From Escherichia phage OLB145: 64,000 bases of DNA. The position numbers and the translations under genes are program-made. The notes beneath the pieces are model-generated. The model saw only the letters and a list, made by a program, of their open reading frames with translations. It had not been told where the DNA came from and ran no database searches. Shown in pieces: positions 17,988-47,544 of this stretch (within the stretch, counting starts at the first letter, position 1; every line of letters starts with the position of its first letter). Location: the sequence record MH992123.1; one strand, 5' to 3'.

Positions 17988-20080
17988 TGAAACGAAATTA
18001 TCTCGCCATTATTGCCCTGTCAGTAGACAGCCGTAACCTCACCTTATGGCAACCAGATGGTTCTACTATGGTCATCCCCCAAGGGGATGCCCGTGTACCA
18101 CGTATTGTTGCTGAAGCAAAAGAAAAGAATCTTACCCCAGGTAAGATTATCGAAGTGGATGTCACTATCGAAGCTCAGATTCGTCAGGAGTTTCTGGACG
18201 CTGAACGTGATACAGGTGGCTTTGTTAAATTCTTCCGTATTACCAAGAAGAAGCTACAAGAGTTCTTCTTAGGAGAAGAAGAAGAAGAACAAGTCCCTCA
18301 TGTATCACCTGTAGAGTTAGGTGCTAAACCCACTGCTTTCAATGCTTTTATTGCTAATGCTGTGGGCAAAACTCTTGCTGTACAACATGCATCATTAAAA
18401 GCACCTGAACCAGAAATGACAGTTACTCATGAGCGTTTTTACGGTAACTATGCTGTATGGATTACAGATGTAGACCCACGGAATCATCGTATTGAGGTTA
18501 TTCATGTTATCCGTGAAATCTCAGGAAGAACCAGTGAATATGTCAATAACCTGCTGGCTCAACCAACCCCATTCAAAGTATTTGATTGGCTCACAGAGAC
18601 GCAGGCTAAAGAGTTTGTAATACGTCTGAATAACACTCAGGGTGTTATCTCTGTCTATAACAAACTGGAAGACGGTATTCCTGCTAAGGTTGCTGTAAAG
18701 GCCACAGAGCCAACCAATAAGGAAAAGCTGGAAGCTGCATCAACTAAGCTGAAAGCTATGGGTGCTATCGCTACTGATGCTTATGAGTTTCATACTGACT
18801 TGAATGAGAATGAAGAGACTATTGTAGCTGTAGTGAATGATAAGGTGGTTCCTGATGTTCAGAACCTACACCGTCACATCCGTCAATCTGCAAACCTGAA
18901 AGACTATAAAGGCTTTACTAAGTTCCTTGAACGTCTGTCTACTGTAATTGATAAACGTCGTCACTCTGTTGAAGACCTGATGAAGTTTATGGAAAAAGGT
19001 GACCTGCCCATTGCAGATGATGGCTCCATTGTTATCTTCAAACGTCTGGAAAGCAAAGACAATCCTGAACATCTCAAAGACGTAATGGATGATGTATTTG
19101 TTGATTGCCATTCTAAGAAGATTGAGCAATGCGTTGGTATGCGTGTAATGGTTAAAGAAAACCTTGTAGACCAGAACCGTCGTAAAGACTGTTCTCATGG
19201 TTTGCACGTAGCTTCTCTGCAATACATTCGTAATTTCTCAGGCAACGTAACCATTATTGGTAAAGTTGCTCCAGAGGATGTATTTGCAGTACCAGAATAC
19301 GATGTTACTAAGATGCGTGTATCTGCTTATCACATCATTACCAAGCTACCTGATGCTATTCGTGACCATGTTAATAATGGCAATCCAATCTCCACCATTG
19401 AGGGTGGTACGGAAATCCTGAACATGGTTCTCAGTGGTAATCACCCTGAACCTTCCCGTCAGGTACTGGTTGGTGGTCATTATGGGACCAATCTGATTTA
19501 TTCAGAACTCACTCGTAATTATCTGGATGATGATGAAGACAGCGTTATTCCAGATGAACCAGTAATTAAGAAAACTGCCTTGAATATGGAAGAGAGCTTT
19601 ACGGCAACTAATCCTAAAGCTGAACCAGTGAAGGCAACGGATGTTAAACCTATTAAGAAGACTAAGATGGAAATTCTTAAAGACCTTTGGAACCAGTTCC
19701 TGAAAGCAGAGACTTCTAATGAAGCTATTACGCTGGCCGATGAAATCATTGCTGCTAAGGGCAAATGTAAGAAGTCATGGGCTTCTTTAGGCTTCAGTGG
19801 TGACATGGTTCAGAAACTGATTGATGCTCGTGCTAATAAGCCTAAGCCAGAAAAAGCAGTCAAACAGGATAAAACTGTTGCACCTAAGAAAACTACAGTC
19901 ACTCGTAGTCGGAATGCTGATGTTATTCGTAGTTATCTGAATGACAAAGGTATGTCTGATTACTGTAAAGCTCATGCCATTCACGATGTGAAACGTGCTG
20001 CTAAGAAGTCTTATGCTGCACTGGGTTTGACTCCTGAAGAATGCAGCCAAATTGATAAACTGAAGCATCACCTGAAGTAA
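17987..20080 (+). CDS. rIIB: rIIB-like protein
   Basis: Start overlaps the rIIA stop (ATGA); assigned by position as the rIIA partner. Confidence 0.5.
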   Translation: MKRNYLAIIALSVDSRNLTLWQPDGSTMVIPQGDARVPRIVAEAKEKNLTPGKIIEVDVTIEAQIRQEFLDAERDTGGFVKFFRITKKKLQEFFLGEEEEEQVPHVSPVELGAKPTAFNAFIANAVGKTLAVQHASLKAPEPEMTVTHERFYGNYAVWITDVDPRNHRIEVIHVIREISGRTSEYVNNLLAQPTPFKVFDWLTETQAKEFVIRLNNTQGVISVYNKLEDGIPAKVAVKATEPTNKEKLEAASTKLKAMGAIATDAYEFHTDLNENEETIVAVVNDKVVPDVQNLHRHIRQSANLKDYKGFTKFLERLSTVIDKRRHSVEDLMKFMEKGDLPIADDGSIVIFKRLESKDNPEHLKDVMDDVFVDCHSKKIEQCVGMRVMVKENLVDQNRRKDCSHGLHVASLQYIRNFSGNVTIIGKVAPEDVFAVPEYDVTKMRVSAYHIITKLPDAIRDHVNNGNPISTIEGGTEILNMVLSGNHPEPSRQVLVGGHYGTNLIYSELTRNYLDDDEDSVIPDEPVIKKTALNMEESFTATNPKAEPVKATDVKPIKKTKMEILKDLWNQFLKAETSNEAITLADEIIAAKGKCKKSWASLGFSGDMVQKLIDARANKPKPEKAVKQDKTVAPKKTTVTRSRNADVIRSYLNDKGMSDYCKAHAIHDVKRAAKKSYAALGLTPEECSQIDKLKHHLK

Positions 20081-34543: not shown

Positions 34544-37500
34544 TTAGTGGGTAAGGTTGAACCAAGGATTGAGGGTAGGTGCTCTTAGTCCTTGTCCGAA
34601 GCCTAATGAATAATCCAGTCTTCCTTCAGCCAGCATGGTTAACATGTTGTCCTGAATTGGCAAACCTACATTACCAAACATGGCAGGAGCAGGTACTACT
34701 GTAGCAATCAGAGAATGTACTGGGTTGTTTCTAATCATGCTCATAGCAACTTTAATGGAACGAATCTTAAAGTTGTAGAACCACATCAGACCCATGCTTT
34801 CCATATAACCACGGAAACGACCAGGCAATCTGTCATAGTTAACAAACTCTTCAGTTACTTGACCTAATGCTTCAGAAGAGGATTTCTTCTTACGTTTCAC
34901 TAAATCATCATAAATGATGGCTTTAGCAATGAAGTCCGAATACTCTACTGTTTTCTGGATACCCTGGAACAGAGCAGTGTCCTTAGCAATAAGAGCATAA
35001 CGGCCAGCATTGCGTACTTTTTCTGGAAGTTTATTAGCAAGTTTTTCCATGTACTCATGAATCTTACCTTCAGCTACTAACAGGTCATCACGACTAATAC
35101 CAGCATCAGCAATAGAAGAGAACTCACCTGCTTCAATCAAAGGCCAGATGCTCATACGACGATGGCTATCAGTAATAGATTGAATCTCGGTTTTAAGTTT
35201 ACGAACCAGATTAGGATTGCCTTCAGCAGCACGTAATTCTGCTTCTGCATCAATCTGACGTAAGCGAGATTTAATGTACTGATTAATCTCTGACGTCTTA
35301 CGAGGAATATTCACAGCAATATCCTTAACAGGAACACCACGTCCAATCATCTGGTAGATGTTAGCAAGGAAGTTAACTGCCGGTACTACAACAGATTTAA
35401 CAACAATTACTGTCTTAGCATCCTTCACCAAGTTCTGAATGGTATTTTCAGCATTCATTACTACATGATATGCCTTATTACCAAATGCACCGAGGAACAT
35501 CTTTTTAACAGTATCAAGGGTGCTGGGTGACCAACGAGAGTTACCAGTCCATACATCACCAATAGATGCAGCACGATAGCCAAGTGCATCATTCAGCATA
35601 TCCCTACGAACCCATAACTCATCTTTACCAAAGAGTTCTTCGGCCTTATGACGAGTCTCAATGTTCATCAGGTTAATTGCATCAGCCAGTACTGGGTCAT
35701 CAATTTTACCTAACAGGTTTACATATTGAGATTTATTAGCACTGGAGTCTTTAATGTCTTTCTCATACATAGCATGTAATTGCTCGATGAGAATGTCATT
35801 AAAACGTTGTGCTTTAGCCTCTTCCACCTGACGACCACGCCATACACCAACCATCTTAGCAAAATGATTGTCTTGGTTTAGATGCTTCAACATATTAGGG
35901 TCAATGGATTGTTCATAAGCAACTACCTGACCTTTGCTGTTATAAATTGGCATCAGTGGTTCACGTCCACGTTCACCTTTAGCCAGAGCTTTGGTAATAC
36001 GCTCTACGGTTGGTTTGTCAGTAATACGACCAGCAACCATAGTACCTAACGTAAAGCCAGTACCAATATCCACGCCACCAGCAGTATTACGAACGTTCTG
36101 AAGAATACCTTGAGAGTATGGGGCACGAGCAGCTACTGGGCTGAAGTAATAACCTTTAGAACCAGTACGGAAACCAGTGCTTCCCTGATAAGTACCAATA
36201 CGAGTAAAAGATTGGCTATTTAACTTAGCAAACTCTTTATCGTCAGCAATAATCAAATTCACACCTTGCTGGTTCTCTACAGGGATATAGCCCTTAAAGT
36301 GATTCAGCAAAGTACGGTTATCACCTTTAGCTTTACGCATCTCTTCAGTACGTTGACCCACCATATAAGCAATGGAGAACTCCATACCTTCCACTTCTGA
36401 TTGAGCCAATTCTGACAAAAGGTCACGGTCAGACTTATTCATCAATTCCAGAGAGTACAAAGTAATGAGCTTATCAATAGCAGCTACATCTGCCACAGGA
36501 CCATTAGTAATACGTTCACCTAACAAACGACTAATAGCATGGGCATTACGAAGGAGGTTATTACCTACTTCCCCTGTAATCATGTATTGAGCCAGTTGCT
36601 TAGATTTCTTCTGAACCAGATTCCAGTTTCTACCTGCTTGGTTCTGAATCTCTTTTTCCAGAGTAGAGATTTCATCTTTCACTTTCTTAGGTGAAGAGAG
36701 TAAATCTCTAATTTCAGCCATGCTCATAGTTTCACGTAGAACAGCTAAATCTGTTTTACCTAAACCAGTATGCATTGCAGACCACTCGGTATCAGTCAGT
36801 TTACGGGAAAACTTACCAGCAATGACTGTAGGTAAATGCTCACGGAATTGTTGACGGTCTTGAGAAATCTGGCTCTTAACCAATTTGATTAAGTCGTAGA
36901 CATTGGCATTAGTCTTAGTACGGCCAACAATGTCATTAACTAAGTCATGGAAAGGTTGCCATACTTTACCCTGGTTCATAGCAGTCATAACACCCTGAGC
37001 CACTATTTCACCTTGTTTTTCAGATGCAATAGCAGCAGTCAGTTTAGCCAGATGAGCAACACCTTTAGCAGCTACATTAGAAGGGTTAGCAATTACCTTA
37101 TCTGCCTTTTCAATAACAGTTTCAGATAACCGTTCAATGCTATCCGTTACGTACTGATTAGCACGGTCAATGAAGTTACCGGTAGGGGTTGCTACAGCAT
37201 CATAGAAGGACTCTCGTTTCAGAGCAGCAGTCATGATTGTTTCTGACAGAGCATCAATACTGTCCTGAACATTAGTAGCTTTCTGGTCACCAGCCATACG
37301 ACGGTTCAGAGATTCCATTACCTGAGTGCCTGCATTGGTAAGCAGAGTATCTACATCATTCCCTAATTTCTTATCTGCTTTAGGTACAGGCATTTCTTTA
37401 ATGATTGAACGTAGTTCTTCATTAACCATAGCCAGACCCAGGAATGTAGGTAACAGACTGGTTCTACCTTTGGCATCTACTTCAACCAGATTAGCACCAG

Positions 37501-40500
37501 AGATAGTGTCATATTTCTGTTGAGCGTAGTAACGGTCAGCAGGGTTAGTACTATCAGGGTCAGTCATGAAATGTTCTACCGTAAGGTGTTTCATTACATG
37601 GGTATAAAGTTCCTGAGCACGAGCCATAGCGTGTGGGTCAATTGCAGCTTCAGTTGCTAATGCAGCAGTAACCATCTGGAATACAGATTGTTCCTGAGCA
37701 GTCATATTGAAGCCACGAGACTGAACATCACGAACCAGTCGAGTAGCACTCATTAATGCATTAGCCACATTGCCACGACGTTCTACTTCTGTAACTGGGT
37801 CAGTACGAAGGTAATCAGTTACCAGTTTATCGAAGGTCTGATTCAACTGAGACAGACGTTCATTGTTACCATATGCTTTGCTATGAAACAGTGTGCCATC
37901 TTTAGCTACTGCCTGAGTTGTAGGTTGGCTACGCATCAGAATTGCAGAATTAAACAGCAGATTAGAGAACATATCTTCTCCCAATGCAGGAGCTTGTTTA
38001 CGTCCCCAAATCAATTTCTTAATAGCCTGATAAACATCTTTCACCATTTGAACCAGTGAAGATGTTCTCTTCTGTTTATCAGTCAGAGCACGGTTAGCTA
38101 ACCCCCAAGCCATAAACTCATTAAGAGCAGCAGCTTTAGAAATAGCTGGGTCAACAAAGCCATTACTCAAATGACCTTCAATAGTTGCAATAGCATCAGC
38201 ATATGCTTCTCTCATTTCTGGAGAATCTTTGGAAATATCCAGAGAACGGAACTGTTCCATCAGACCTTCAAGGTTCTCAATAGCCTGCTTAGAAGTAGGG
38301 CTTACTTCATTACCCTGATAGAAGGAATAAACTTCCTCGAAGGTAGAAGCATGAACCAGTTCATGAATGAGGGTTTCCATAGAGGGGCTAACCAGATAAA
38401 TGGTCTTATCATCGAAGTTAGTCCAGCCATAAATATTACCTGCCTGAGCTTCTTCCATTTCCTGAGAAGTCAATTCAGTAACATTCTTCTGACGAGCATA
38501 CTCTGCAACCTGAGTAGGTGTACCGTAGATAATCTTATAGTCTTTAGCTGCCAGTGATTTCTGAATCTCTGCAAGAGTAGCTGCCTGAGTAGATGGCAGA
38601 TTACTAATCTTAGCCAGATTACGAATAGCAGTAGCAGACAGGATACGAACACCGGATGCCTTATGCTCACGGCCTACCATACCAAAGTCTGGATTCACTG
38701 GTTCTTTTTCAGAAACAGTTTCTTCTTTGACTTCAGCCTTAGCCTTAGCGACTTTTTGTTTACGGGCTTCTAACTCTTCACGGAAAAGTTTATTCAGTTC
38801 ATCAGCCTGTTGTTCAGGGGTCATATTGCTGAGGTCAATCTTACCGTTGTTCTGATAAGGAGCACCTACAGCAGCCATCTGGTCAATGGACAGATTTACC
38901 TTATCCAGTACCTTATGGCGAATATCTACCCCCAGTGCAATATTACGTAAGTTACGTTCAATCAGAGATGCAGCATTAGCAATATCATCTACAGTAGCAT
39001 TCTCACGTTGGTCATATTCCAGAGCAGATTTACCAATTGCTTCCAATGCTTCAGGGGACAACTTGCTGAAATCTACATTCTTCATGAACTTAGCATATGA
39101 TTCGTAAACATTCTTAATAGGGTTACCCTGCCAAGAAGTGTAAACAGCCTCATTAGCCTTACGACTAGCATCAGTAATGTCATTCAAACCAATGTTCATA
39201 CCATCAAAGATTTTGAGGGTATTCTTTGGTGCACCTTTCATAGTGGAAAGAGTTTGCATCATCATGCCATCACCAGTACCAATAGTCATAAATGGAATAC
39301 CTGCTACACCGGCCTGTGCTGGGGCATAGATACTCATTGGTACACGCATACGGTCATCAAGGTTAGTAGCTAATACCTGATTTGCTACTTCTGCATTTTC
39401 TGAGCCAGCAATGTAGAAAGTCTGAGAACCAGTCTCAATCATAGGAGCTAAGTTATTCAGAGAAGCCTGAATATCATTCAGTTCTTTCTGAGTAAGGAAA
39501 TCGCCTTTCTTCCATGTCGGGTCTTTAGCCTTCTCTGTCAGTTTTTCCTGTACTCGCTGTTTGAACATATCTTCCAGCACTACAGATTGAATCTGAGTAG
39601 CTTTCTGTAATTGTTCAGTAGAGTACACCAGACTTTCACCTACAGTCTGAGTAATACCATTACGTAGTGGTTCTACAAAGAAGTGCAGCATATTTTCCTG
39701 AAGTGCCTTCAGTTGCTCACCCTTAATGGTATAGGTCTTAGGATTGATTTTCCCTTTGGCTCCTGCACCTGTGGATTGTAGTTCCAGTACACCTTTACGT
39801 TTAACAGGAACAGTAGAAGTCAGTGTTTCCATATCTTTCAGGAAACGAGCAAGAAGTTCTTCAGCATGTGCTTCTGAAGCAGCTTGCTTACCAAACATTG
39901 CCATAGCAGCAGAGATGTTTGGGTCTTTAGCACGAGCTTTCAGCACATCAGACATACGCTCATAGATGGCATCAGTAACAGAACTAACCAGCTTACCTGC
40001 AATACCACGAGCACCAGAACCATAGATAGTAATAGTCAGTGGGTTCTTAGCAATACCACGTTTAAGTTCTAAAGCACCATTCTCGCCGAGATTAATATCC
40101 GGTAAGAACAAATCCATCAGAGAAAGAAGACTATCTATCTGGGACTGAATAGGCATATTAGAAGCGTAGTTACTACGTAACTTACCCAACGATTCCATCA
40201 AAGCATTAGTGGATGCTTGATATAAATCATTATTGTCAGCAGTAGAACGATGCTCATTCATGGTCTTATTTGGAGAACCAATGAACAAGCCACCTTTGGC
40301 AATGTTACGAATCCAGTCAGGGGTAAACAGGCCACCTGTCATTAGCATCATGGCATTGATTGGACCATTAGTAACACCATCTGCTTCTACATACAGTGGG
40401 GTTACAAATGCAGATTTATCCTCTGCTACTAAGTAACGGGAATACTCCATAAGAGCCATCAATGCTACGAATGACTTCCTATCTCCTAATGCTGTATTCA

Positions 40501-43500
40501 GAACATCAACTGCATTTTCTGGTAAGGAACCAGTGGTATTAAACTCAACCATCATATCAATGGCTGGTTTCAGATTACCTTCCAGTAATTTAGTTAACTC
40601 ATCTGACATAACCTCACGAGTCATAGTATGGACTTTAATGTCCAATGCCTGAGCCAGACCTAACTGGAATGCAGAGAAGTCTTCATTGTTCTGGTTCGAT
40701 AAATCCAAAGTAGCTTTAGTAGGTAGGATAGCCTCACGAACCAGTTTGGCTGATTGAGGATTGTATTTACCTAACATCTGCATACGACCAACACGGGTCA
40801 TATTGTATGCATAGTGAATAGGCACAGTAGAGATGTCTTCACTCTGTGCTCTTACCTGCTCAATGACGGAGAACAGTTGGTTGTAAGAGTCCTCTACTGA
40901 ACGGTTCTTACCTTCCAGAGATTTAGCATGGTTATCATTAAGTAACTCTTTATTCAGAGTACCAGCACCCATCAGTTCGAGAATACGGTCTTTACCTAAC
41001 GTCTCATAGAATTGAACCATTGGAGTGTGTACATAGAACTCTGTAGTCTGCTCTGCTTTCAATGCAGCCTTCTGTTCTGGAGTATTACGAACAGCAGGAT
41101 TACGAAGCTGAGTATTAGCTACAGGAGGAATGTCATTACCAAAGAACATCTTCTCTGTAGGATTTACTAAAACAGCTTCTTCAATAGCAGTAGGGAAGCT
41201 ATTAATTGGGTCGAAGGAATCCAGTTCAGTAATGGTGTACAGACCAATCGTCTTCTTATTATCTGGGTCAATTTCTGACATATCCACGATGTTCTCTACA
41301 ACATCAGTAGACTCTACAAATGCAGCCAGAATTTCAGCAGCCATTGCTGTAGGGATACCTTTGGTATAGCCCAATGGAGCATTTGGATTACGAGATAATC
41401 CCCAGTAAGACTCAATTTTCTGAGCCAGGGAACTAACTGCTTCAGTGAGTGTCATACCAGTATCAAATTGCTCTACTAAACCTTCTGGCAGCAAGGCTTG
41501 GTCAATACCAGTAATAGCAGCAACATCTTTTGCATCTTTGATAGCAGTATTGCTGGTAGCAGTAAGTCTCCACTGAAGACCCGCTAATACAGCAGTCTGT
41601 AGCAATTGCTCATTGTACTTAAAGGTATCCCCATCCTGTTCAACGATGTTAAGTAACTTACCACCTACCCAACGGTTGGCTTCTGTACCCTGAGCAAAAC
41701 GTTTACCAACATCCTTAGTGTTAAGGAACTTAGCCAGACGGGAACGAAGAATATCAGCAATACCTTCCCCATGTTCCATGAGTTCTTTATATCGCTTAAT
41801 AACTTCCCCATTAAAAGCAGGATTAGCAACTTCTTTCTCAGTAAAGAGTTCATAACGAGCACGGGAAGATAGAGCTTGAGCTACATCTTTTAGAGGTGCT
41901 TCTGAACCAACAGTACGGGATTTCTGTTCTTCCGGTAAGGTAAAGGACAATTTGAAATAGTTCTTAATACCCTCTGCTTTAGAATCAGCAGTACCTACCA
42001 ATGAGGGGTAAACAGCATCGATACCTTCTCTTAATTCTTCTGTAACTGTACGTTCTTTTACAGAAGTTTCAGTTTCTTTAACAGATTCAGTAGGTTGCTC
42101 GATGGTATCCTCATTAGTGAGGGTAGCATCCTGTTTTTCAGACTGGCTCACAGGTTCTTTTATAGCCTGTGGTCTAGACTCTTTAGTAGTAGGTTCTGTT
42201 TTAACAGGTTCACTAACAGGAGTCTTAGTCTGTACAGTAGATGTAACTGGTTCCTGTTTTGTAACAGGAGTTTCTTTAACCTGATTCACGGAGTCAGCTT
42301 TCTGTTGAGAAGAAGCAACGTCTCGATTGCCTTGACGGAATGCCTTGACCACCTCAGCAGCAGGGGCGTTAAGCCGTGAATCCAATGGAGTAACTTTTAT
42401 ATGACTGACCTTCAGTTCCGGGTAAGCCGAAGCGAGGGCATTAGCAATATCCGCTACCGTTTTCGCTTCAAGAGCAACTTGCTGGGCAAATTTAACCGAC
42501 TTAGTGTCATAGGGATTGACCCCCAATCCGGTACGGCTACGAACCCATTCTCTGTCGGCAGTAAGAGCTTGGTAGTGGACAGACTTATTCTTATCCGCAT
42601 TCCCCGTAACAAGATGCTCATTCAACGCTCCAACCTTATTCTGCATGTGCTGGGCGAACTGCATAAAGTCGTTCAGGTAAGCGGAGGCCAACTCGAAATT
42701 ACCAGAGTTATACGCAGACCGAATCCTATTCGCATGCTGCAACGCAGAGTATTGTCCTTCCTGAGTTCTGCTCTCATCCGTCTTAATCTGTTTACTCACA
42801 ATGTCTTGAGGACGTAATCCAAGACGGGCAGCTTCTGCATCATATTCCCGTGCCCCCTTCAGGATTGCAGCAGCATTCTGAAGGGCAGCAATTTGGCGAT
42901 TATTCAGTTTAATACGACCATCAGCAGCATGTTTAAGAACAACATTTACAGATTCTGGATTGAGCTTTTCAGGAGCTACTTCAGCAGCTAATGCTACGTT
43001 CTGCATTTCCTGTGGACTGGATTCTTCAGTCACATCCAAAGAACCATTCTGGGCAGATTCATTAATCATTCGATTAATAACATTCAGTGCACCAATTACT
43101 TTTGGTGTGTTCTGAATATTAGCTGTCAGATTTGTATAACGATTGAGTAACTCAATAGCCGGAGAATCTTTAGGAATGCTATCCAGTGCAGCAGGGTCAC
43201 GGTTAATGAATTGCTCAAACTCTGAAACAGCATCATACATATAAGATGCAGCTTCCATCAGTGCTTGAGGATTAGATTCATCTAATGTGTTAACTAGGTC
43301 TGCTAACTTTTGAATAACCTGTACTTGGTCAGTAGAACCAGCTACAGCATTACGAATATGCTCTGGTGCTTCCTGATAATTTTCAGGATTAAAACGAGTA
43401 GCATTCATTAAGTCAGAAACATACTGGTGTGCTGCAACTTTCTGTTCTGGAGTAGCATCAGTTGCTTCAACAGCATCACGAATAGTAACTTCTGCTTCTG

Positions 43501-45046
43501 GTGCTTGAGCCATAGCTTCTTGTGCTGCCTGTGCAACATAGTCATCAGCAACAGGAGATGCTTCTTCATTCTGCTTCATAACCCGCTCACCACGAGCTAC
43601 CAAAGTGTTCTTAATAGGGGAAACAACCTTACCTGCTACACTACCAGCAGCTTTAACACCAGCCATTGTGGTACGCAATACAGGAGCAGTTGCAGCACCT
43701 GCTAAACGAGCAGCACCAGCCGGAGCCTGTACAACACCAGCAGAGCCAAAGCCATAAAGAGCACCTAAACCAGCTTGTGTACCGACACCTTTAAGCAGGT
43801 CTTGGTTCTTATCAATGTTTTGTTGCTGTGCAATATTCTGAGCCAGTTGTCCTGTAGCACCCTGAACACCTTCTTCCACTGTTTCACGGGCAAGGTTCAT
43901 ACCTACAGCACCTAAAGAACCAGCACGGAAAGGGGCCATCTCAAAACGAAATACCAGAGGACCAGTTGCAGCAGCAATAGGTAATTGAATAGCAGCAGCA
44001 GTAAGACCCGTTTCAGATGCAGTCTGACGACGAGCCTGTTCTGGAGACATACCATCTTTAATATGTTGCTGATAAACAGGAGACTTCTCTAAGTCTTTAA
44101 GACTCATCTTCATAATTTCATCAGCAGTTTGTTGGTATGCACCACCAGCTTCTATTGCACCAACACCAACCATACCCGGTGCAGCTCTACCTACAGTAGA
44201 GGCAATACGAGCCAGTGACTGAGTACCAGTACCTGCATCAATAGCACCAGCCAATGCAGCACTACGAAGAGTATTTGCTGGAACAACTGCTTTACCCAGT
44301 AAAGATGCACCCCTTAATACAGGACCAGCACCTAATAGAGAACCTACCCCTTCTGCTAACCCATCGGAAATAATGGAGTCAGTTTGAGCAGCATTCTCAA
44401 TTGAACCTACAAAATCACGTCCAAATTTAGATAAGGAAGCTACTATGTCATTAGTGCCTTCTTTCTTATCTGTTTGATACTGACGTTCACTCTCTACTTC
44501 ATTCATTAAGTTACGAGCAGCAAAGAGCTTACGTTTATCTTGTAATGCCTGGCTTTGGGTAGCATGAACAGCATCATTAAACTTACTCAATTGTTGAGCA
44601 ACAACAGCACCTGCATCATCGTTGAGTAAGCCTGCCCCAAGAGCACCAATGCCCCCAAGGGTATTAACAAAACCAAGACCAACACCAGTAGCAATATCAC
44701 CCAGTTCTTCCCCAGGAGTTCTTGTAGTAACTGAATCATTGAATACCTGGTTCCCTGCATCAGCACGAGCATTGATAAGTTGTAAGCCTTGCTCAACCCC
44801 ATACTTATTCATGATTTGCATTGGAGTCAGATTCATGAAATCTGATTGCACTGTCCCTGGTTCAAATGCATTAGCCCCAACATTACCAGTACGGGCAGCT
44901 TGCATTTGATAAGCAGCATCAGGAGAAACAAGAGGAGTAGTGACACCTTGTTCAGCTTTCTTCTGGGCGGTTGCAGTAGAGACGTCAACTTGCTTTGCAT
45001 TGGTTACGCTGTCTGCGAACCCAGCCAGTCTATCAAATACTGACAT
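34544..45046 (-). CDS. Virion-encapsidated RNA polymerase (N4 gp50-like vRNAP, 3500 aa)
   Basis: Single ORF of about 10.5 kb; track ORF starts at TTG (3506 aa), the RBS-supported ATG at 45046 gives exactly 3500 aa, the N4 vRNAP length. Confidence 0.85.
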   Translation of the reverse strand: MSVFDRLAGFADSVTNAKQVDVSTATAQKKAEQGVTTPLVSPDAAYQMQAARTGNVGANAFEPGTVQSDFMNLTPMQIMNKYGVEQGLQLINARADAGNQVFNDSVTTRTPGEELGDIATGVGLGFVNTLGGIGALGAGLLNDDAGAVVAQQLSKFNDAVHATQSQALQDKRKLFAARNLMNEVESERQYQTDKKEGTNDIVASLSKFGRDFVGSIENAAQTDSIISDGLAEGVGSLLGAGPVLRGASLLGKAVVPANTLRSAALAGAIDAGTGTQSLARIASTVGRAAPGMVGVGAIEAGGAYQQTADEIMKMSLKDLEKSPVYQQHIKDGMSPEQARRQTASETGLTAAAIQLPIAAATGPLVFRFEMAPFRAGSLGAVGMNLARETVEEGVQGATGQLAQNIAQQQNIDKNQDLLKGVGTQAGLGALYGFGSAGVVQAPAGAARLAGAATAPVLRTTMAGVKAAGSVAGKVVSPIKNTLVARGERVMKQNEEASPVADDYVAQAAQEAMAQAPEAEVTIRDAVEATDATPEQKVAAHQYVSDLMNATRFNPENYQEAPEHIRNAVAGSTDQVQVIQKLADLVNTLDESNPQALMEAASYMYDAVSEFEQFINRDPAALDSIPKDSPAIELLNRYTNLTANIQNTPKVIGALNVINRMINESAQNGSLDVTEESSPQEMQNVALAAEVAPEKLNPESVNVVLKHAADGRIKLNNRQIAALQNAAAILKGAREYDAEAARLGLRPQDIVSKQIKTDESRTQEGQYSALQHANRIRSAYNSGNFELASAYLNDFMQFAQHMQNKVGALNEHLVTGNADKNKSVHYQALTADREWVRSRTGLGVNPYDTKSVKFAQQVALEAKTVADIANALASAYPELKVSHIKVTPLDSRLNAPAAEVVKAFRQGNRDVASSQQKADSVNQVKETPVTKQEPVTSTVQTKTPVSEPVKTEPTTKESRPQAIKEPVSQSEKQDATLTNEDTIEQPTESVKETETSVKERTVTEELREGIDAVYPSLVGTADSKAEGIKNYFKLSFTLPEEQKSRTVGSEAPLKDVAQALSSRARYELFTEKEVANPAFNGEVIKRYKELMEHGEGIADILRSRLAKFLNTKDVGKRFAQGTEANRWVGGKLLNIVEQDGDTFKYNEQLLQTAVLAGLQWRLTATSNTAIKDAKDVAAITGIDQALLPEGLVEQFDTGMTLTEAVSSLAQKIESYWGLSRNPNAPLGYTKGIPTAMAAEILAAFVESTDVVENIVDMSEIDPDNKKTIGLYTITELDSFDPINSFPTAIEEAVLVNPTEKMFFGNDIPPVANTQLRNPAVRNTPEQKAALKAEQTTEFYVHTPMVQFYETLGKDRILELMGAGTLNKELLNDNHAKSLEGKNRSVEDSYNQLFSVIEQVRAQSEDISTVPIHYAYNMTRVGRMQMLGKYNPQSAKLVREAILPTKATLDLSNQNNEDFSAFQLGLAQALDIKVHTMTREVMSDELTKLLEGNLKPAIDMMVEFNTTGSLPENAVDVLNTALGDRKSFVALMALMEYSRYLVAEDKSAFVTPLYVEADGVTNGPINAMMLMTGGLFTPDWIRNIAKGGLFIGSPNKTMNEHRSTADNNDLYQASTNALMESLGKLRSNYASNMPIQSQIDSLLSLMDLFLPDINLGENGALELKRGIAKNPLTITIYGSGARGIAGKLVSSVTDAIYERMSDVLKARAKDPNISAAMAMFGKQAASEAHAEELLARFLKDMETLTSTVPVKRKGVLELQSTGAGAKGKINPKTYTIKGEQLKALQENMLHFFVEPLRNGITQTVGESLVYSTEQLQKATQIQSVVLEDMFKQRVQEKLTEKAKDPTWKKGDFLTQKELNDIQASLNNLAPMIETGSQTFYIAGSENAEVANQVLATNLDDRMRVPMSIYAPAQAGVAGIPFMTIGTGDGMMMQTLSTMKGAPKNTLKIFDGMNIGLNDITDASRKANEAVYTSWQGNPIKNVYESYAKFMKNVDFSKLSPEALEAIGKSALEYDQRENATVDDIANAASLIERNLRNIALGVDIRHKVLDKVNLSIDQMAAVGAPYQNNGKIDLSNMTPEQQADELNKLFREELEARKQKVAKAKAEVKEETVSEKEPVNPDFGMVGREHKASGVRILSATAIRNLAKISNLPSTQAATLAEIQKSLAAKDYKIIYGTPTQVAEYARQKNVTELTSQEMEEAQAGNIYGWTNFDDKTIYLVSPSMETLIHELVHASTFEEVYSFYQGNEVSPTSKQAIENLEGLMEQFRSLDISKDSPEMREAYADAIATIEGHLSNGFVDPAISKAAALNEFMAWGLANRALTDKQKRTSSLVQMVKDVYQAIKKLIWGRKQAPALGEDMFSNLLFNSAILMRSQPTTQAVAKDGTLFHSKAYGNNERLSQLNQTFDKLVTDYLRTDPVTEVERRGNVANALMSATRLVRDVQSRGFNMTAQEQSVFQMVTAALATEAAIDPHAMARAQELYTHVMKHLTVEHFMTDPDSTNPADRYYAQQKYDTISGANLVEVDAKGRTSLLPTFLGLAMVNEELRSIIKEMPVPKADKKLGNDVDTLLTNAGTQVMESLNRRMAGDQKATNVQDSIDALSETIMTAALKRESFYDAVATPTGNFIDRANQYVTDSIERLSETVIEKADKVIANPSNVAAKGVAHLAKLTAAIASEKQGEIVAQGVMTAMNQGKVWQPFHDLVNDIVGRTKTNANVYDLIKLVKSQISQDRQQFREHLPTVIAGKFSRKLTDTEWSAMHTGLGKTDLAVLRETMSMAEIRDLLSSPKKVKDEISTLEKEIQNQAGRNWNLVQKKSKQLAQYMITGEVGNNLLRNAHAISRLLGERITNGPVADVAAIDKLITLYSLELMNKSDRDLLSELAQSEVEGMEFSIAYMVGQRTEEMRKAKGDNRTLLNHFKGYIPVENQQGVNLIIADDKEFAKLNSQSFTRIGTYQGSTGFRTGSKGYYFSPVAARAPYSQGILQNVRNTAGGVDIGTGFTLGTMVAGRITDKPTVERITKALAKGERGREPLMPIYNSKGQVVAYEQSIDPNMLKHLNQDNHFAKMVGVWRGRQVEEAKAQRFNDILIEQLHAMYEKDIKDSSANKSQYVNLLGKIDDPVLADAINLMNIETRHKAEELFGKDELWVRRDMLNDALGYRAASIGDVWTGNSRWSPSTLDTVKKMFLGAFGNKAYHVVMNAENTIQNLVKDAKTVIVVKSVVVPAVNFLANIYQMIGRGVPVKDIAVNIPRKTSEINQYIKSRLRQIDAEAELRAAEGNPNLVRKLKTEIQSITDSHRRMSIWPLIEAGEFSSIADAGISRDDLLVAEGKIHEYMEKLANKLPEKVRNAGRYALIAKDTALFQGIQKTVEYSDFIAKAIIYDDLVKRKKKSSSEALGQVTEEFVNYDRLPGRFRGYMESMGLMWFYNFKIRSIKVAMSMIRNNPVHSLIATVVPAPAMFGNVGLPIQDNMLTMLAEGRLDYSLGFGQGLRAPTLNPWFNLTH

Positions 45047-45105
45047 AGTAGGTTTCCTATACAAACTTATATCTATTAGAAATCACACTATACCTAGTGT
45101 AAGGA

Positions 45106-45146: not shown

Positions 45147-47003
45147 TTAACGAGGAAATATATCAGGGATACCCAATCGACGTCCGGCATCTCTGCCTAA
45201 ACTTCTCCGGTTTGCCTCGCTCTCTTCCTGTTTAATATTTTGTAGGCTCTTAATATCCAAATTCTGAGGGTCAGCAGCTACAGCACTACGAGCACCATCA
45301 AGAAGACGTTTAGCAGTATTAACTCGCTCCTGATAGCGAGGTAGTACACTTCTAAGGTTTTCCTGACCGGTCTGAATTCGACGCTGTACTTCACGTAAAT
45401 CAGCAAGTGCAGTATCTAACGTATTCTGTGCTGCATAGATGTTTGATTGAATTTGTGCAGTAAGCTGATTACGAGCATTCTGTTCAATAGCAGTACCAGT
45501 AGTTGCAAGTTTTGCATTTGCTTCTACGGCTGCTTTATCCAGTTGGTAATCACCACCCAAATCAATAACATCAGTATCAAAGGCATTTCGAATACCACTA
45601 AACCATCCCTCTGGTTTACCAGTGATACTACGTTGAATGATTGCCCCTGCCATAGCGGGAGAAATAGCATTCTGTTTTGCTACCTCATTGATTTGTCGAA
45701 CCAGTGCACCTTGGTTAATGCCTTTCAGTTCATTGCTATCAATAATACGTTTAGCCACCTGACCGGTCGTAGAGGGGTCAACAGTAGCAGCTTGGTATTC
45801 TGGCAGCAGAGTATTACCAATATTCTGCATATTACGAGTACCAACAGTATTACCAGCAACAGAAGTGAATGCTTGTTCTTGTAATGGATTAATAGAATTA
45901 CCTGTTTCTGCTTGAGCAATGTAATCCTTCATTTCATCCCATGACAAGTTCTTATAAGCACCAGGAGTATCATCCGGTAAAGCAGCCCATGTACTCTTCA
46001 GATTGCCATTCTTACGGGCATTAAAAATAGCTTCACCCAGTTTGTCTTGATTCTCCGGAGACATAGGAATGTTCTGCCAATCTTCACCAAATACCTTTGG
46101 AGCAAAGTCTTTAAGGGTATCTTGGTTAATCTGGTATGCACCAACAGGAGAAGCACCTAGTGTCTTCTTCATAGTGTCTTGATGCTGAACCACCTCACCT
46201 AAGTTCATCTGAGTAATAGGTACATCAGTTGGTGTGAACTTATAGGTAGTGTCATATGCAGAACCATTCCTAGTACCCTGAGTACCAGGAGGGGATAGAG
46301 ATGCAGAACCAGTTCCCGGAGTATATGCACCTGGATATGCTCTATCTAACTGAGATAGTGCACGACTTACTGCTCCTGGTGACATTTGGTCGAACGTACC
46401 CTCTGCAAGCATACGAGCATCGTCAGCACTGTATGCACCACGACGAATATTATTCAGTAACTGCATAGCAGCCTGAGTATCCGCATCGTTACGCATATCA
46501 ACACCTAAGTTGAATAAGCTGCGACGTTGACCAATACCAGCAGTACCCTGTCCTTGAAGGTTGTTCATGTAGTCCATAACAACACCAGCAGGAAGGGTTT
46601 TTAATACATCCCCATACTGAGCCTGTGCTGCCTGAACCTTTCTTGGGTCACCAGATTGATAGGCCAGAGCCAATTCCTGTAATGCAGGGGCAGCAGCATC
46701 AGTAGCTGCATTTACCTTCATGGTTCTGTCATTACTGTATCGAGTGAAATCCAGATTTTGTTGTTTAGATGCTTGGTCTAACAGATTGCCAGCACGATTA
46801 TCTAAGTTCTCCATAGTACGAGAAGAAATTAGAGAAGGGTCATAGCCAGCAAATAATGCTCCAGAAGCTAAGGCATTACGATACTCATTAGGGTCTTGGT
46901 AACGCATGGCTTCAGCCATAATTGCATCACCAGCTTGCTGTCTTGCAGAGTTTCGAAAATCACCTAATGCATTACTCAATCCGGCAGTGGCATTACCCAG
47001 CAT
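45147..47003 (-). CDS. Virion internal/ejection protein with lytic-transglycosylase-like (SLT) motif (N4 gp51-like position)
   Basis: LGEVV...ASPVGAYQINQDT resembles the E-S...SPVGA.GLMQI core of SLT domains; adjacent to vRNAP. Confidence 0.45.
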   Translation of the reverse strand: MLGNATAGLSNALGDFRNSARQQAGDAIMAEAMRYQDPNEYRNALASGALFAGYDPSLISSRTMENLDNRAGNLLDQASKQQNLDFTRYSNDRTMKVNAATDAAAPALQELALAYQSGDPRKVQAAQAQYGDVLKTLPAGVVMDYMNNLQGQGTAGIGQRRSLFNLGVDMRNDADTQAAMQLLNNIRRGAYSADDARMLAEGTFDQMSPGAVSRALSQLDRAYPGAYTPGTGSASLSPPGTQGTRNGSAYDTTYKFTPTDVPITQMNLGEVVQHQDTMKKTLGASPVGAYQINQDTLKDFAPKVFGEDWQNIPMSPENQDKLGEAIFNARKNGNLKSTWAALPDDTPGAYKNLSWDEMKDYIAQAETGNSINPLQEQAFTSVAGNTVGTRNMQNIGNTLLPEYQAATVDPSTTGQVAKRIIDSNELKGINQGALVRQINEVAKQNAISPAMAGAIIQRSITGKPEGWFSGIRNAFDTDVIDLGGDYQLDKAAVEANAKLATTGTAIEQNARNQLTAQIQSNIYAAQNTLDTALADLREVQRRIQTGQENLRSVLPRYQERVNTAKRLLDGARSAVAADPQNLDIKSLQNIKQEESEANRRSLGRDAGRRLGIPDIFPR

Positions 47004-47091
47004 ATTGGAGAAAGTACGAATACTATCCCCAACACCAGAGAAAGAAACTAACTAAACAATACCCAAATCTCAATGACTCATACGATACCTC

Positions 47092-47544
47092 TTAACGAGT
47101 TAAGCGATTGGCTGCAATGTAAGCATCAGCCGTAGATTGGTCACGATTTTCTGCAACAGCACGACTACGAGCACGGTCTTCCAGAGCAGTGTTATAGGAC
47201 TTAATCTGGTTATTCAGATTAGTGTTAGTAACATCTTTAGCAAAAGAGAACTGATTCTTAGCTAACTTGTTAGCCTGTAATGCACCATAGATATTACCCA
47301 GTGCATTAAGACCACCTAACCCCAACTGGAAGGTGGGAATATTCAGACCCAGTTGGTCAGTAAGCCCCCGAGTCTGCCCACCGGTATTCCCTGTAGCACC
47401 ACCAGTAATATTCTGAAGCCAGTCATTACTAAGGATGCCGGATTGCATAGGGTTATAGTTCATGGTTGGGGTATTAAAGGAACCATACCCATAGCCAAAA
47501 TTGCTTTGTGCAGATGGGGTTCCAAAAAGGAAATTAGTATCCAT
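47092..47544 (-). CDS. Gly/Asn-rich small virion protein (150 aa)
   Basis: AGGAG RBS, ATG start; G/N/T-rich N-terminus. Confidence 0.5.
   Translation of the reverse strand: MDTNFLFGTPSAQSNFGYGYGSFNTPTMNYNPMQSGILSNDWLQNITGGATGNTGGQTRGLTDQLGLNIPTFQLGLGGLNALGNIYGALQANKLAKNQFSFAKDVTNTNLNNQIKSYNTALEDRARSRAVAENRDQSTADAYIAANRLTR

Follow-up and report, generated by a model that had tools for sequence, protein, structure and literature searches.

Positions 45147..47003 (minus strand) of the 64,000-nucleotide stretch of Escherichia phage OLB145 analysed here (sequence record MH992123.1; hereafter the window) encode gp51, the '66 kDa virion protein', an ejected periplasmic-tunnel protein of 618 residues here and 644 residues in phage N4. 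We found that gp51 contains a domain of about 125 residues (aa 244–368, N4 270–394; 45900..46274, minus strand) that is, to judge from its sequence, a divergent homologue of the GH104 (family-4 lytic transglycosylase) fold, to which lambda lysozyme belongs. This domain is the best-conserved part of gp51, and the lysozyme-like domain of N4 gp51 is previously undescribed. Its canonical catalytic Glu and the N-terminal helix that carries this Glu have been lost, as the alignments show. With moderate confidence, we regard the domain as a putative peptidoglycan-engaging, non-canonical lysozyme module that would act at cell-wall height. Residues are numbered as in the window protein, and N4 numbering is obtained by adding 26 (E270 = N4 E296; Q291 = Q317; W339 = W365; E366 = E392).

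A lambda-lysozyme-like domain in gp51

The initial annotation of this gene had singled out the motif ASPVGAYQINQDT and read it, together with a preceding acidic residue, as an SLT-like catalytic core. The motif is present in gp51 at aa 284–296 (46116..46154, minus strand), with acidic residues upstream at E270 (14 residues before) and D276 (8 residues before), and it is equivalent to lambda lysozyme S61-T-G-A-G-R-Y-Q68. Because G288, Q291 and T296 vary little or not at all across 151 diverse family members, and because the motif aligns with the S-x-x-G-x-Y-Q of lambda-type lysozymes, we conclude that ASPVGAYQINQDT is not a chance match. Thus, the motif does lie in a lysozyme-superfamily domain, as had been supposed; however, the domain is not of the SLT type (PF01464), and the window protein has no Pfam match.

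To describe the family, we searched exhaustively with HMMER, using a small profile built from aa 244–372 (threshold E ≤ 1e-3). The profile matched 586 cluster representatives, most of which are 550–800 residues long and carry the match at about residue 230–330, which is the gp51 architecture. Across 118 full-length members, mean column conservation is 0.43–0.65 in the domain (N4 261–395) as compared to 0.17–0.38 elsewhere, except in the first 20 residues. In the 151 domain sequences, G288, Q291 and T296 are joined by Q319, L335, W339 and E366 as residues that are invariant or nearly so. When we compared the domain profile with PDB sequences, it found N4 gp51 itself and no other chain, and a search of a word index for homologues of the domain alone had no result, which reflects a limitation of the index.

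The domain has the two-lobed fold of lysozymes. AlphaFold2 (AF2) modelling of the domain alone, from a 59-sequence alignment, gave a predicted local distance difference test (pLDDT) of 92.6 and a predicted template modelling score (pTM) of 0.84. A Foldseek search of this model against the PDB gave no significant match. Against predicted viral structures, the non-schitoviral matches were the phiM12 baseplate hub (E 6e-5), an M15B-peptidase protein, a gp5/Vgr-type protein (5e-4) and a signal-arrest-release (SAR) endolysin transglycosylase (9e-3).

The initial annotation had also proposed a profile search for a lysozyme-like fold, and this search finds one: by hhalign, the gp51 profile matches a lambda-like lysozyme subfamily, represented by 17 relatives that carry an 'MT.GEV' helix, at 99.6% and E 1e-24 over 104 columns. 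Compared with lambda-type enzymes, the domain family matches at 98.3% (E 1e-14), and compared with lambda R alone it matches at E 8e-4, with GAYQ placed on GRYQ, SPENQD on SPKSQD and TWAALP on IWASLP. The 'MT.GEV' relatives themselves match lambda R (97.3%, E 2e-11), and their invariant Glu falls on lambda Glu19. The signatures of the family that gp51 keeps, namely Y-D, S-x-x-G-x-Y-Q, S-P-x-x-Q-D, W-A-x-L-P and G-x-Y, are found in collinear order. We consider it very probable that the gp51 domain is homologous to the lambda-lysozyme fold.

With a gp51-family member as the query, tblastn found phiM12-type baseplate hubs, which carry the annotation COG4678 (lambda-lysozyme muramidase), as well as a protein of a Xanthomonas jumbo phage and, in two Gyeongsanvirus T7-like phages, the N-terminus of internal virion protein D. 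Viral-contig scans seeded by those proteins (queries phiM12, BUDD and L098) added 22 further diverse relatives; a lambda R homologue search and a first viral-contig scan had found near-identical lambda relatives only. The gp51 domain groups with a subfamily that occurs in myophage baseplate hubs and in internal virion proteins of some T7-like phages.

In lambda lysozyme, Q68, A125 and Y132 interact with the bound sugar, and Q68 forms a hydrogen bond with it (PMC6916166). The gp51 equivalents of these residues are Q291 (present in 150 of 151 sequences), A340 and Y350 (125 of 151), and the neighbouring W339 is present in 150 of 151.

Pfam and NCBIfam scans of whole gp51 and of the isolated domain found nothing, and Pfam found nothing even at E ≤ 10. 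Lambda lysozyme also has no Pfam-A match even at E ≤ 10, and when we compared 17 diverse 'MT.GEV' lambda-like lysozyme domains with Pfam, a single one had weak sub-threshold matches (E 0.006–0.009). Thus, the family scans are silent on gp51 because lambda R and the 'MT.GEV' relatives also get no real Pfam match, and the 'MT.GEV'/lambda-type lysozyme subfamily is effectively invisible to Pfam-based annotation. Among 59 gp51 relatives, there were sub-threshold Pfam matches to an Rpf-transglycosylase family (11/59) and to SLT (6/59; SLT E ≥ 0.012).

The canonical catalytic glutamate and the invariant E366

In all active-type relatives (26/26), we found an N-terminal amphipathic helix, 'hLLxxIxxxE[S/G]', with an invariant Glu that is followed within a few residues by G-Y-D/N. 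The hhalign homology of the gp51 family starts directly after this catalytic helix. In its place, gp51 has a Gly/Ala/Pro/Ser/Thr-rich linker (aa 223–243; 46275..46337, minus strand), and the position aligned to lambda Glu19 is Q242 in the window protein and A, P or F in other family members. The 30 residues that precede the domain are 24% G, 16% A, 10% P, 10% S and 8% T, and this Gly/Ala/Pro-rich segment is a flexible linker that joins the domain to the gp15-like leg. Gp51 therefore does not have the single catalytic Glu that ends the N-terminal helix in GH104 enzymes (lambda Glu19), and because the catalytic helix is absent, any muralytic activity of gp51 would be putative. With virion-associated peptidoglycan hydrolases, gp51 has in common its place in the virion and a lysozyme fold, but not the canonical Glu, for which E366 is a possible substitute.

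The acidic residue that the initial annotation had put forward as catalytic does not hold up. E270 (46194..46196, minus strand) lies in a 'PITQM.LGEV' helix that is also present in the active relatives, as 'MTVGEV', and its column holds E in 84, D in 35 and Q in 19 of 147 sequences (57%, 24% and 13%). Because E270 is variable, and because the active relatives that share its helix hold their invariant Glu on the separate N-terminal helix (26/26), we rejected it as the catalytic Glu. A canonical SLT-type core (GH23, PF01464) with E270 in this role would agree with the distance of 18 residues from E270 to GAYQ, which is near the spacing of E-S and G-L-M-Q in SLT domains, and with the weak SLT and Rpf-transglycosylase matches in the relatives. 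However, the window protein has no match to the family model even at E ≤ 10, no E-S catalytic motif is found upstream, residue 270 can be E, D, Q or another residue, the catalytic Glu lies elsewhere in the active relatives, and the closest structures and profiles are lambda-type rather than SLT. We consider such a core highly improbable.

Other sources of a catalytic helix were tried and rejected. Within gp51, the only other strongly conserved segment (N4 1–20) contains no Glu. Among 12 virion proteins of the window, scanned with a position-specific scoring matrix (PSSM) of the catalytic helix, just two unremarkable windows scored above E366. Both are in the giant virion RNA polymerase (vRNAP): SDRDLLSELAQSEVEG (aa 2878–2893) and RAAPGMVGVGAIEAGG (aa 293–308), and given the 3506-residue length of this protein they are probably chance matches. 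Two contigs of 73–82 kb (L099 and L100), considered as carriers of schitoviral gp51 homologues with an intact Glu, have no giant polymerase open reading frame (ORF) within 10 kb and were therefore rejected as such.

E366 (N4 E392; 45906..45908, minus strand) is the sole invariant acidic residue of the domain (150/150) and is found at the end of the last helix, in the context 'I-x-x-x-E-[S/V/T]-G'. It is 100% conserved in the full-length alignment too and is never Asp. One alternative to a non-canonical module is that the gp51 domain is an active lytic transglycosylase or lysozyme in which E366 replaces the lost N-terminal Glu, perhaps by a circular-permutation-like rearrangement. This is possible, but we regard it as unlikely. 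In its favour, E366 is invariant while the equivalent position is unconserved in the active relatives, and its context resembles the catalytic helix 'hLLxxIxxxE[S/G]'. The catalytic-helix PSSM ranks the E366 window at a median of 4th of about 650 windows per protein, 1st in 33 of 139 proteins, and 3rd of 8898 across the 12 virion proteins of the window. When the last helix is moved before the core, the hhalign score is 162.2, as compared to 147.3 for the core alone and 148.6–155.5 with 28 control segments, and the match extends over the catalytic helix.

In contrast, the median PSSM rank is only 49 when the E and the +1 to +3 columns are left out, and these tests are partly circular because the helix was picked for its invariant Glu. 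The position of the helix also argues against a relocated active site. It begins four residues after Y350, the equivalent of the upper-lip residue Y132 of lambda lysozyme, and it is collinear with lambda helix alpha6, which continues from the upper lip (PMC6916166). This collinearity places E366 on lambda E148 in the alignment. The analogy with T4 lysozyme suggests that the far end of alpha6 should point away from the cleft and be well removed from the scissile bond. Circular permutation of the gp51 domain has some support, but it is confounded and structurally doubtful, and we think it rather improbable that N4-type gp51 is an active muralytic enzyme whose Glu has moved to the end of the C-terminal helix in a re-wired, possibly circularly permuted site. 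If this were true, gp51 would provide the peptidoglycan cleavage that the N4 ejectosome is believed to require and is at present said to lack.

A putative peptidoglycan-engaging module in the N4 ejectosome

The initial annotation had taken gp51 for an ejected internal protein, which agrees with the published N4 ejection model, in which gp51 forms the periplasmic tunnel used by vRNAP (PMC13434306). In that work, gp51 surrounds the portal in full virions and is absent from emptied ones (Bellis et al. 2026, PMC13434306). Cryo-electron microscopy of N4 gp51 1–359 showed that residues 52–255 have a fold like the 'leg' of T7 gp15 and assemble into a decameric channel. Insertion of gp51 into membranes was also reported, the protein was assigned as the periplasmic tunnel of the ejectosome and the route of vRNAP, and the N4 ejection proteins were apparently without cell-wall-cutting activity (PMC13434306). 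In the window, the leg region corresponds to aa 26–229 (46317..46928, minus strand; PDB 11mn match; PMC13434306). We found that the last residue of the published ΔC-gp51 construct (1–359) falls at position 106 of the 147 positions of the domain profile, within the lysozyme-like domain, so that W365, L368, W381, I388 and E392 (N4 numbering) are cut off. Because the construct ends in the middle of this domain, its end may explain the disorder that was reported beyond residue 255.

Gp51 is the ejection protein whose periplasmic tunnel is passed by DNA and by the 3500-residue vRNAP. We propose that, after ejection, copies of the domain would sit at about cell-wall height, ten of them if the gp51 1–359 decamer holds, where they may engage glycan strands of the peptidoglycan. 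The domains could in this way dock or anchor the tunnel in the murein without canonical lytic transglycosylase action. Any cleavage would need a non-canonical acid, for which E366 is the sole candidate.

Several observations weigh against this proposal. The very strict conservation of the domain and its invariant Glu are equally expected of an active enzyme. AF2 modelling of full-length gp51 is poor (pLDDT 55), and therefore no orientation of the domain on the tunnel can be taken from the model. In addition, the AlphaFold3 (AF3) model of full-length gp51 is described by its authors only as slender and mainly helical (PMC13434306). The domain could also be a fossil lysozyme fold that has no role at the peptidoglycan and has been kept as a rigid spacer, to help the protein oligomerise or to offer gp52, vRNAP or the portal a surface on which to dock. 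The loss of the catalytic helix fits this explanation, and so does DEV gp72, the equivalent protein of another schitovirus, in which we detected no copy of the domain when the domain profile was compared with PDB chains; a schitoviral tunnel can therefore do without the lysozyme domain. However, lambda residues that contact sugar have equivalents among the invariant residues of gp51, conservation is higher in the domain than in the parts of the protein that form the tunnel, and active lysozyme domains occupy the matching position in other ejectosomes; we find a fossil fold quite improbable. Taken together, we favour a peptidoglycan-engaging module, about which we are moderately confident, over a relocated Glu, which seems unlikely, over a fossil spacer, which seems less likely still, and over an SLT core around E270, to which we give almost no weight.

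Lambda lysozyme R (GH104; PDB 1AM7, 3D3D), which is mechanistically a lytic transglycosylase, shares with gp51 the collinear elements Y33-D34, S61..G65-x-Y67-Q68, S87-P..Q91-D92, W124-A-S-L-P and Y132. Unlike lambda R, gp51 has no helix alpha1 and no Glu19 and has the extra 'PITQM.LGEV' helix, and whereas lambda R is a free endolysin, the gp51 module is an internal domain of a 644-residue ejected structural protein. The lambda-type tail-lysozyme domains in the baseplate hubs of myophages (gp5 of Sinorhizobium phage phiM12, COG4678, and the hub of cyanophage A-1(L), PDB 8KEA) have the 'MT.GEV' helix, as gp51 does, and like the gp51 domain they are virion-borne and placed to meet the cell wall at infection. 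In contrast to gp51, they retain the N-terminal 'hLLxxIxxxE[G/S]' catalytic helix, and they sit on the spike of a contractile tail rather than on an ejected tunnel.

Lysozymes of podophage ejectosomes, namely the N-terminal SLT domain of T7 gp16, the C-terminal T4-lysozyme-like domain of phiKMV/Ar-KM gp42, the central domain of the Dunnvirinae tunnel protein and the N-terminal lambda-type domain of Gyeongsanvirus internal protein D, share the setting of gp51 in that they belong to an ejected, periplasm-spanning protein. Unlike gp51, they have recognisable catalytic residues, and activity has been shown for T7 and phiKMV. In Autographivirales, lysozyme domains are found at the N-terminus of the inner-membrane protein, at the C-terminus of the tunnel protein or, in Dunnvirinae, in the centre of the tunnel protein at about residue 300, while T7 gp15 is described as having no lysozyme domain (bioRxiv 10.64898/2026.05.18.726046). 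Gp51 shares the Dunnvirinae arrangement, in which the domain lies near residue 300, in the centre of a gp15-like tunnel protein. In its N-terminal half, gp51 folds like the gp15 leg and builds a decameric channel, as in T7 gp15 and DEV gp72 (PMC13434306). The two Gyeongsanvirus proteins found by tblastn, from Bordetella phage BB8 (L003 4357-9012) and Ralstonia phage BOESR1 (L004 4360-8958), are T7-gp16-like internal virion proteins D that open with a lambda-type lysozyme domain (FLDFLGKAEGADYDTIVGG...), where T7 has an SLT-type domain.

Within the schitoviruses, gp16 of Pseudomonas phage ZC03 (L007 24492-26987, 'peptidoglycan hydrolase', 831 residues) lies between vRNAP and a 150-residue gp52-like gene, as gp51 does. 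It is a virion protein by proteomics and has a lysozyme-superfamily domain in mid-protein, as in gp51. Unlike gp51, ZC03 gp16 has a canonical SLT domain (PF01464, residues 336–443, E 2.5e-18) with an A-E-S catalytic motif, and it has no detectable sequence similarity to N4 gp51. Thus, Schitoviridae have at least two unrelated forms of a lysozyme-superfamily module at this locus.

A lambda-lysozyme-type module at about residue 300 would align N4 with T7-like phages, in which a lysozyme domain of the ejectosome is placed at cell-wall height. The finding bears directly on an open point of the current N4 ejection model. The domain boundaries (N4 ~262–400) and residues E392, Q317 and W365 become concrete targets for studying how cargo on the megadalton scale crosses the murein. 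Because it has lost the canonical Glu and has a new, invariant one, gp51 is also a test case for a pseudo-enzyme turned binding module as compared to a relocated active site.

The gp51 locus and its divergent 5' end

The window is the genome of an N4-type coliphage. Gp51 is directly adjoined, as the initial annotation had it, by the 3506-residue ORF of vRNAP (gp50; 34544..45064, minus strand), its downstream neighbour in the ejection operon. The upstream neighbour encodes gp52 (47092..47544, minus strand), a 150-residue outer-membrane ejection protein (function from PMC13434306). The 1857-nucleotide gp51 stretch is 99.8% identical in DNA to phage vB_EcoP_3HA13 and 98.1% identical to N4 gene 51; this identity to N4, together with the identical gene order between the gp52-like gene and vRNAP, identifies the protein as the orthologue of N4 gp51. 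The first 333 residues of the window protein match PDB 11mn ('66 kDa protein', N4 gp51 residues 1–359), and the protein belongs to PHROG 6126, virion structural protein (E 1.7e-256).

At the 5' end of gene 51, a divergent patch of 37 nucleotides (47047..47083, minus strand) has 18 mismatches to both 3HA13 and N4 and places in-frame stops at codons 4 and 10 of the normal gp51 start. Because of these two stops, the ORF in the window begins at Met27 of the N4-type protein, and the first 26 conserved codons are removed. The 26 lost residues contain the second most conserved stretch of the family (N4 1–20), and public data hold an otherwise identical protein (P0001) with its N-terminus intact. Possible explanations of the patch are an error in sequencing or assembly, local recombination and a genuine truncation. 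Differences from 3HA13 are densely clustered at just two other places in the first 50 kb, 32007–32030 (24 differences) and 19518–19542 (6 differences), and the remainder of the window is about 99.5% identical to 3HA13.

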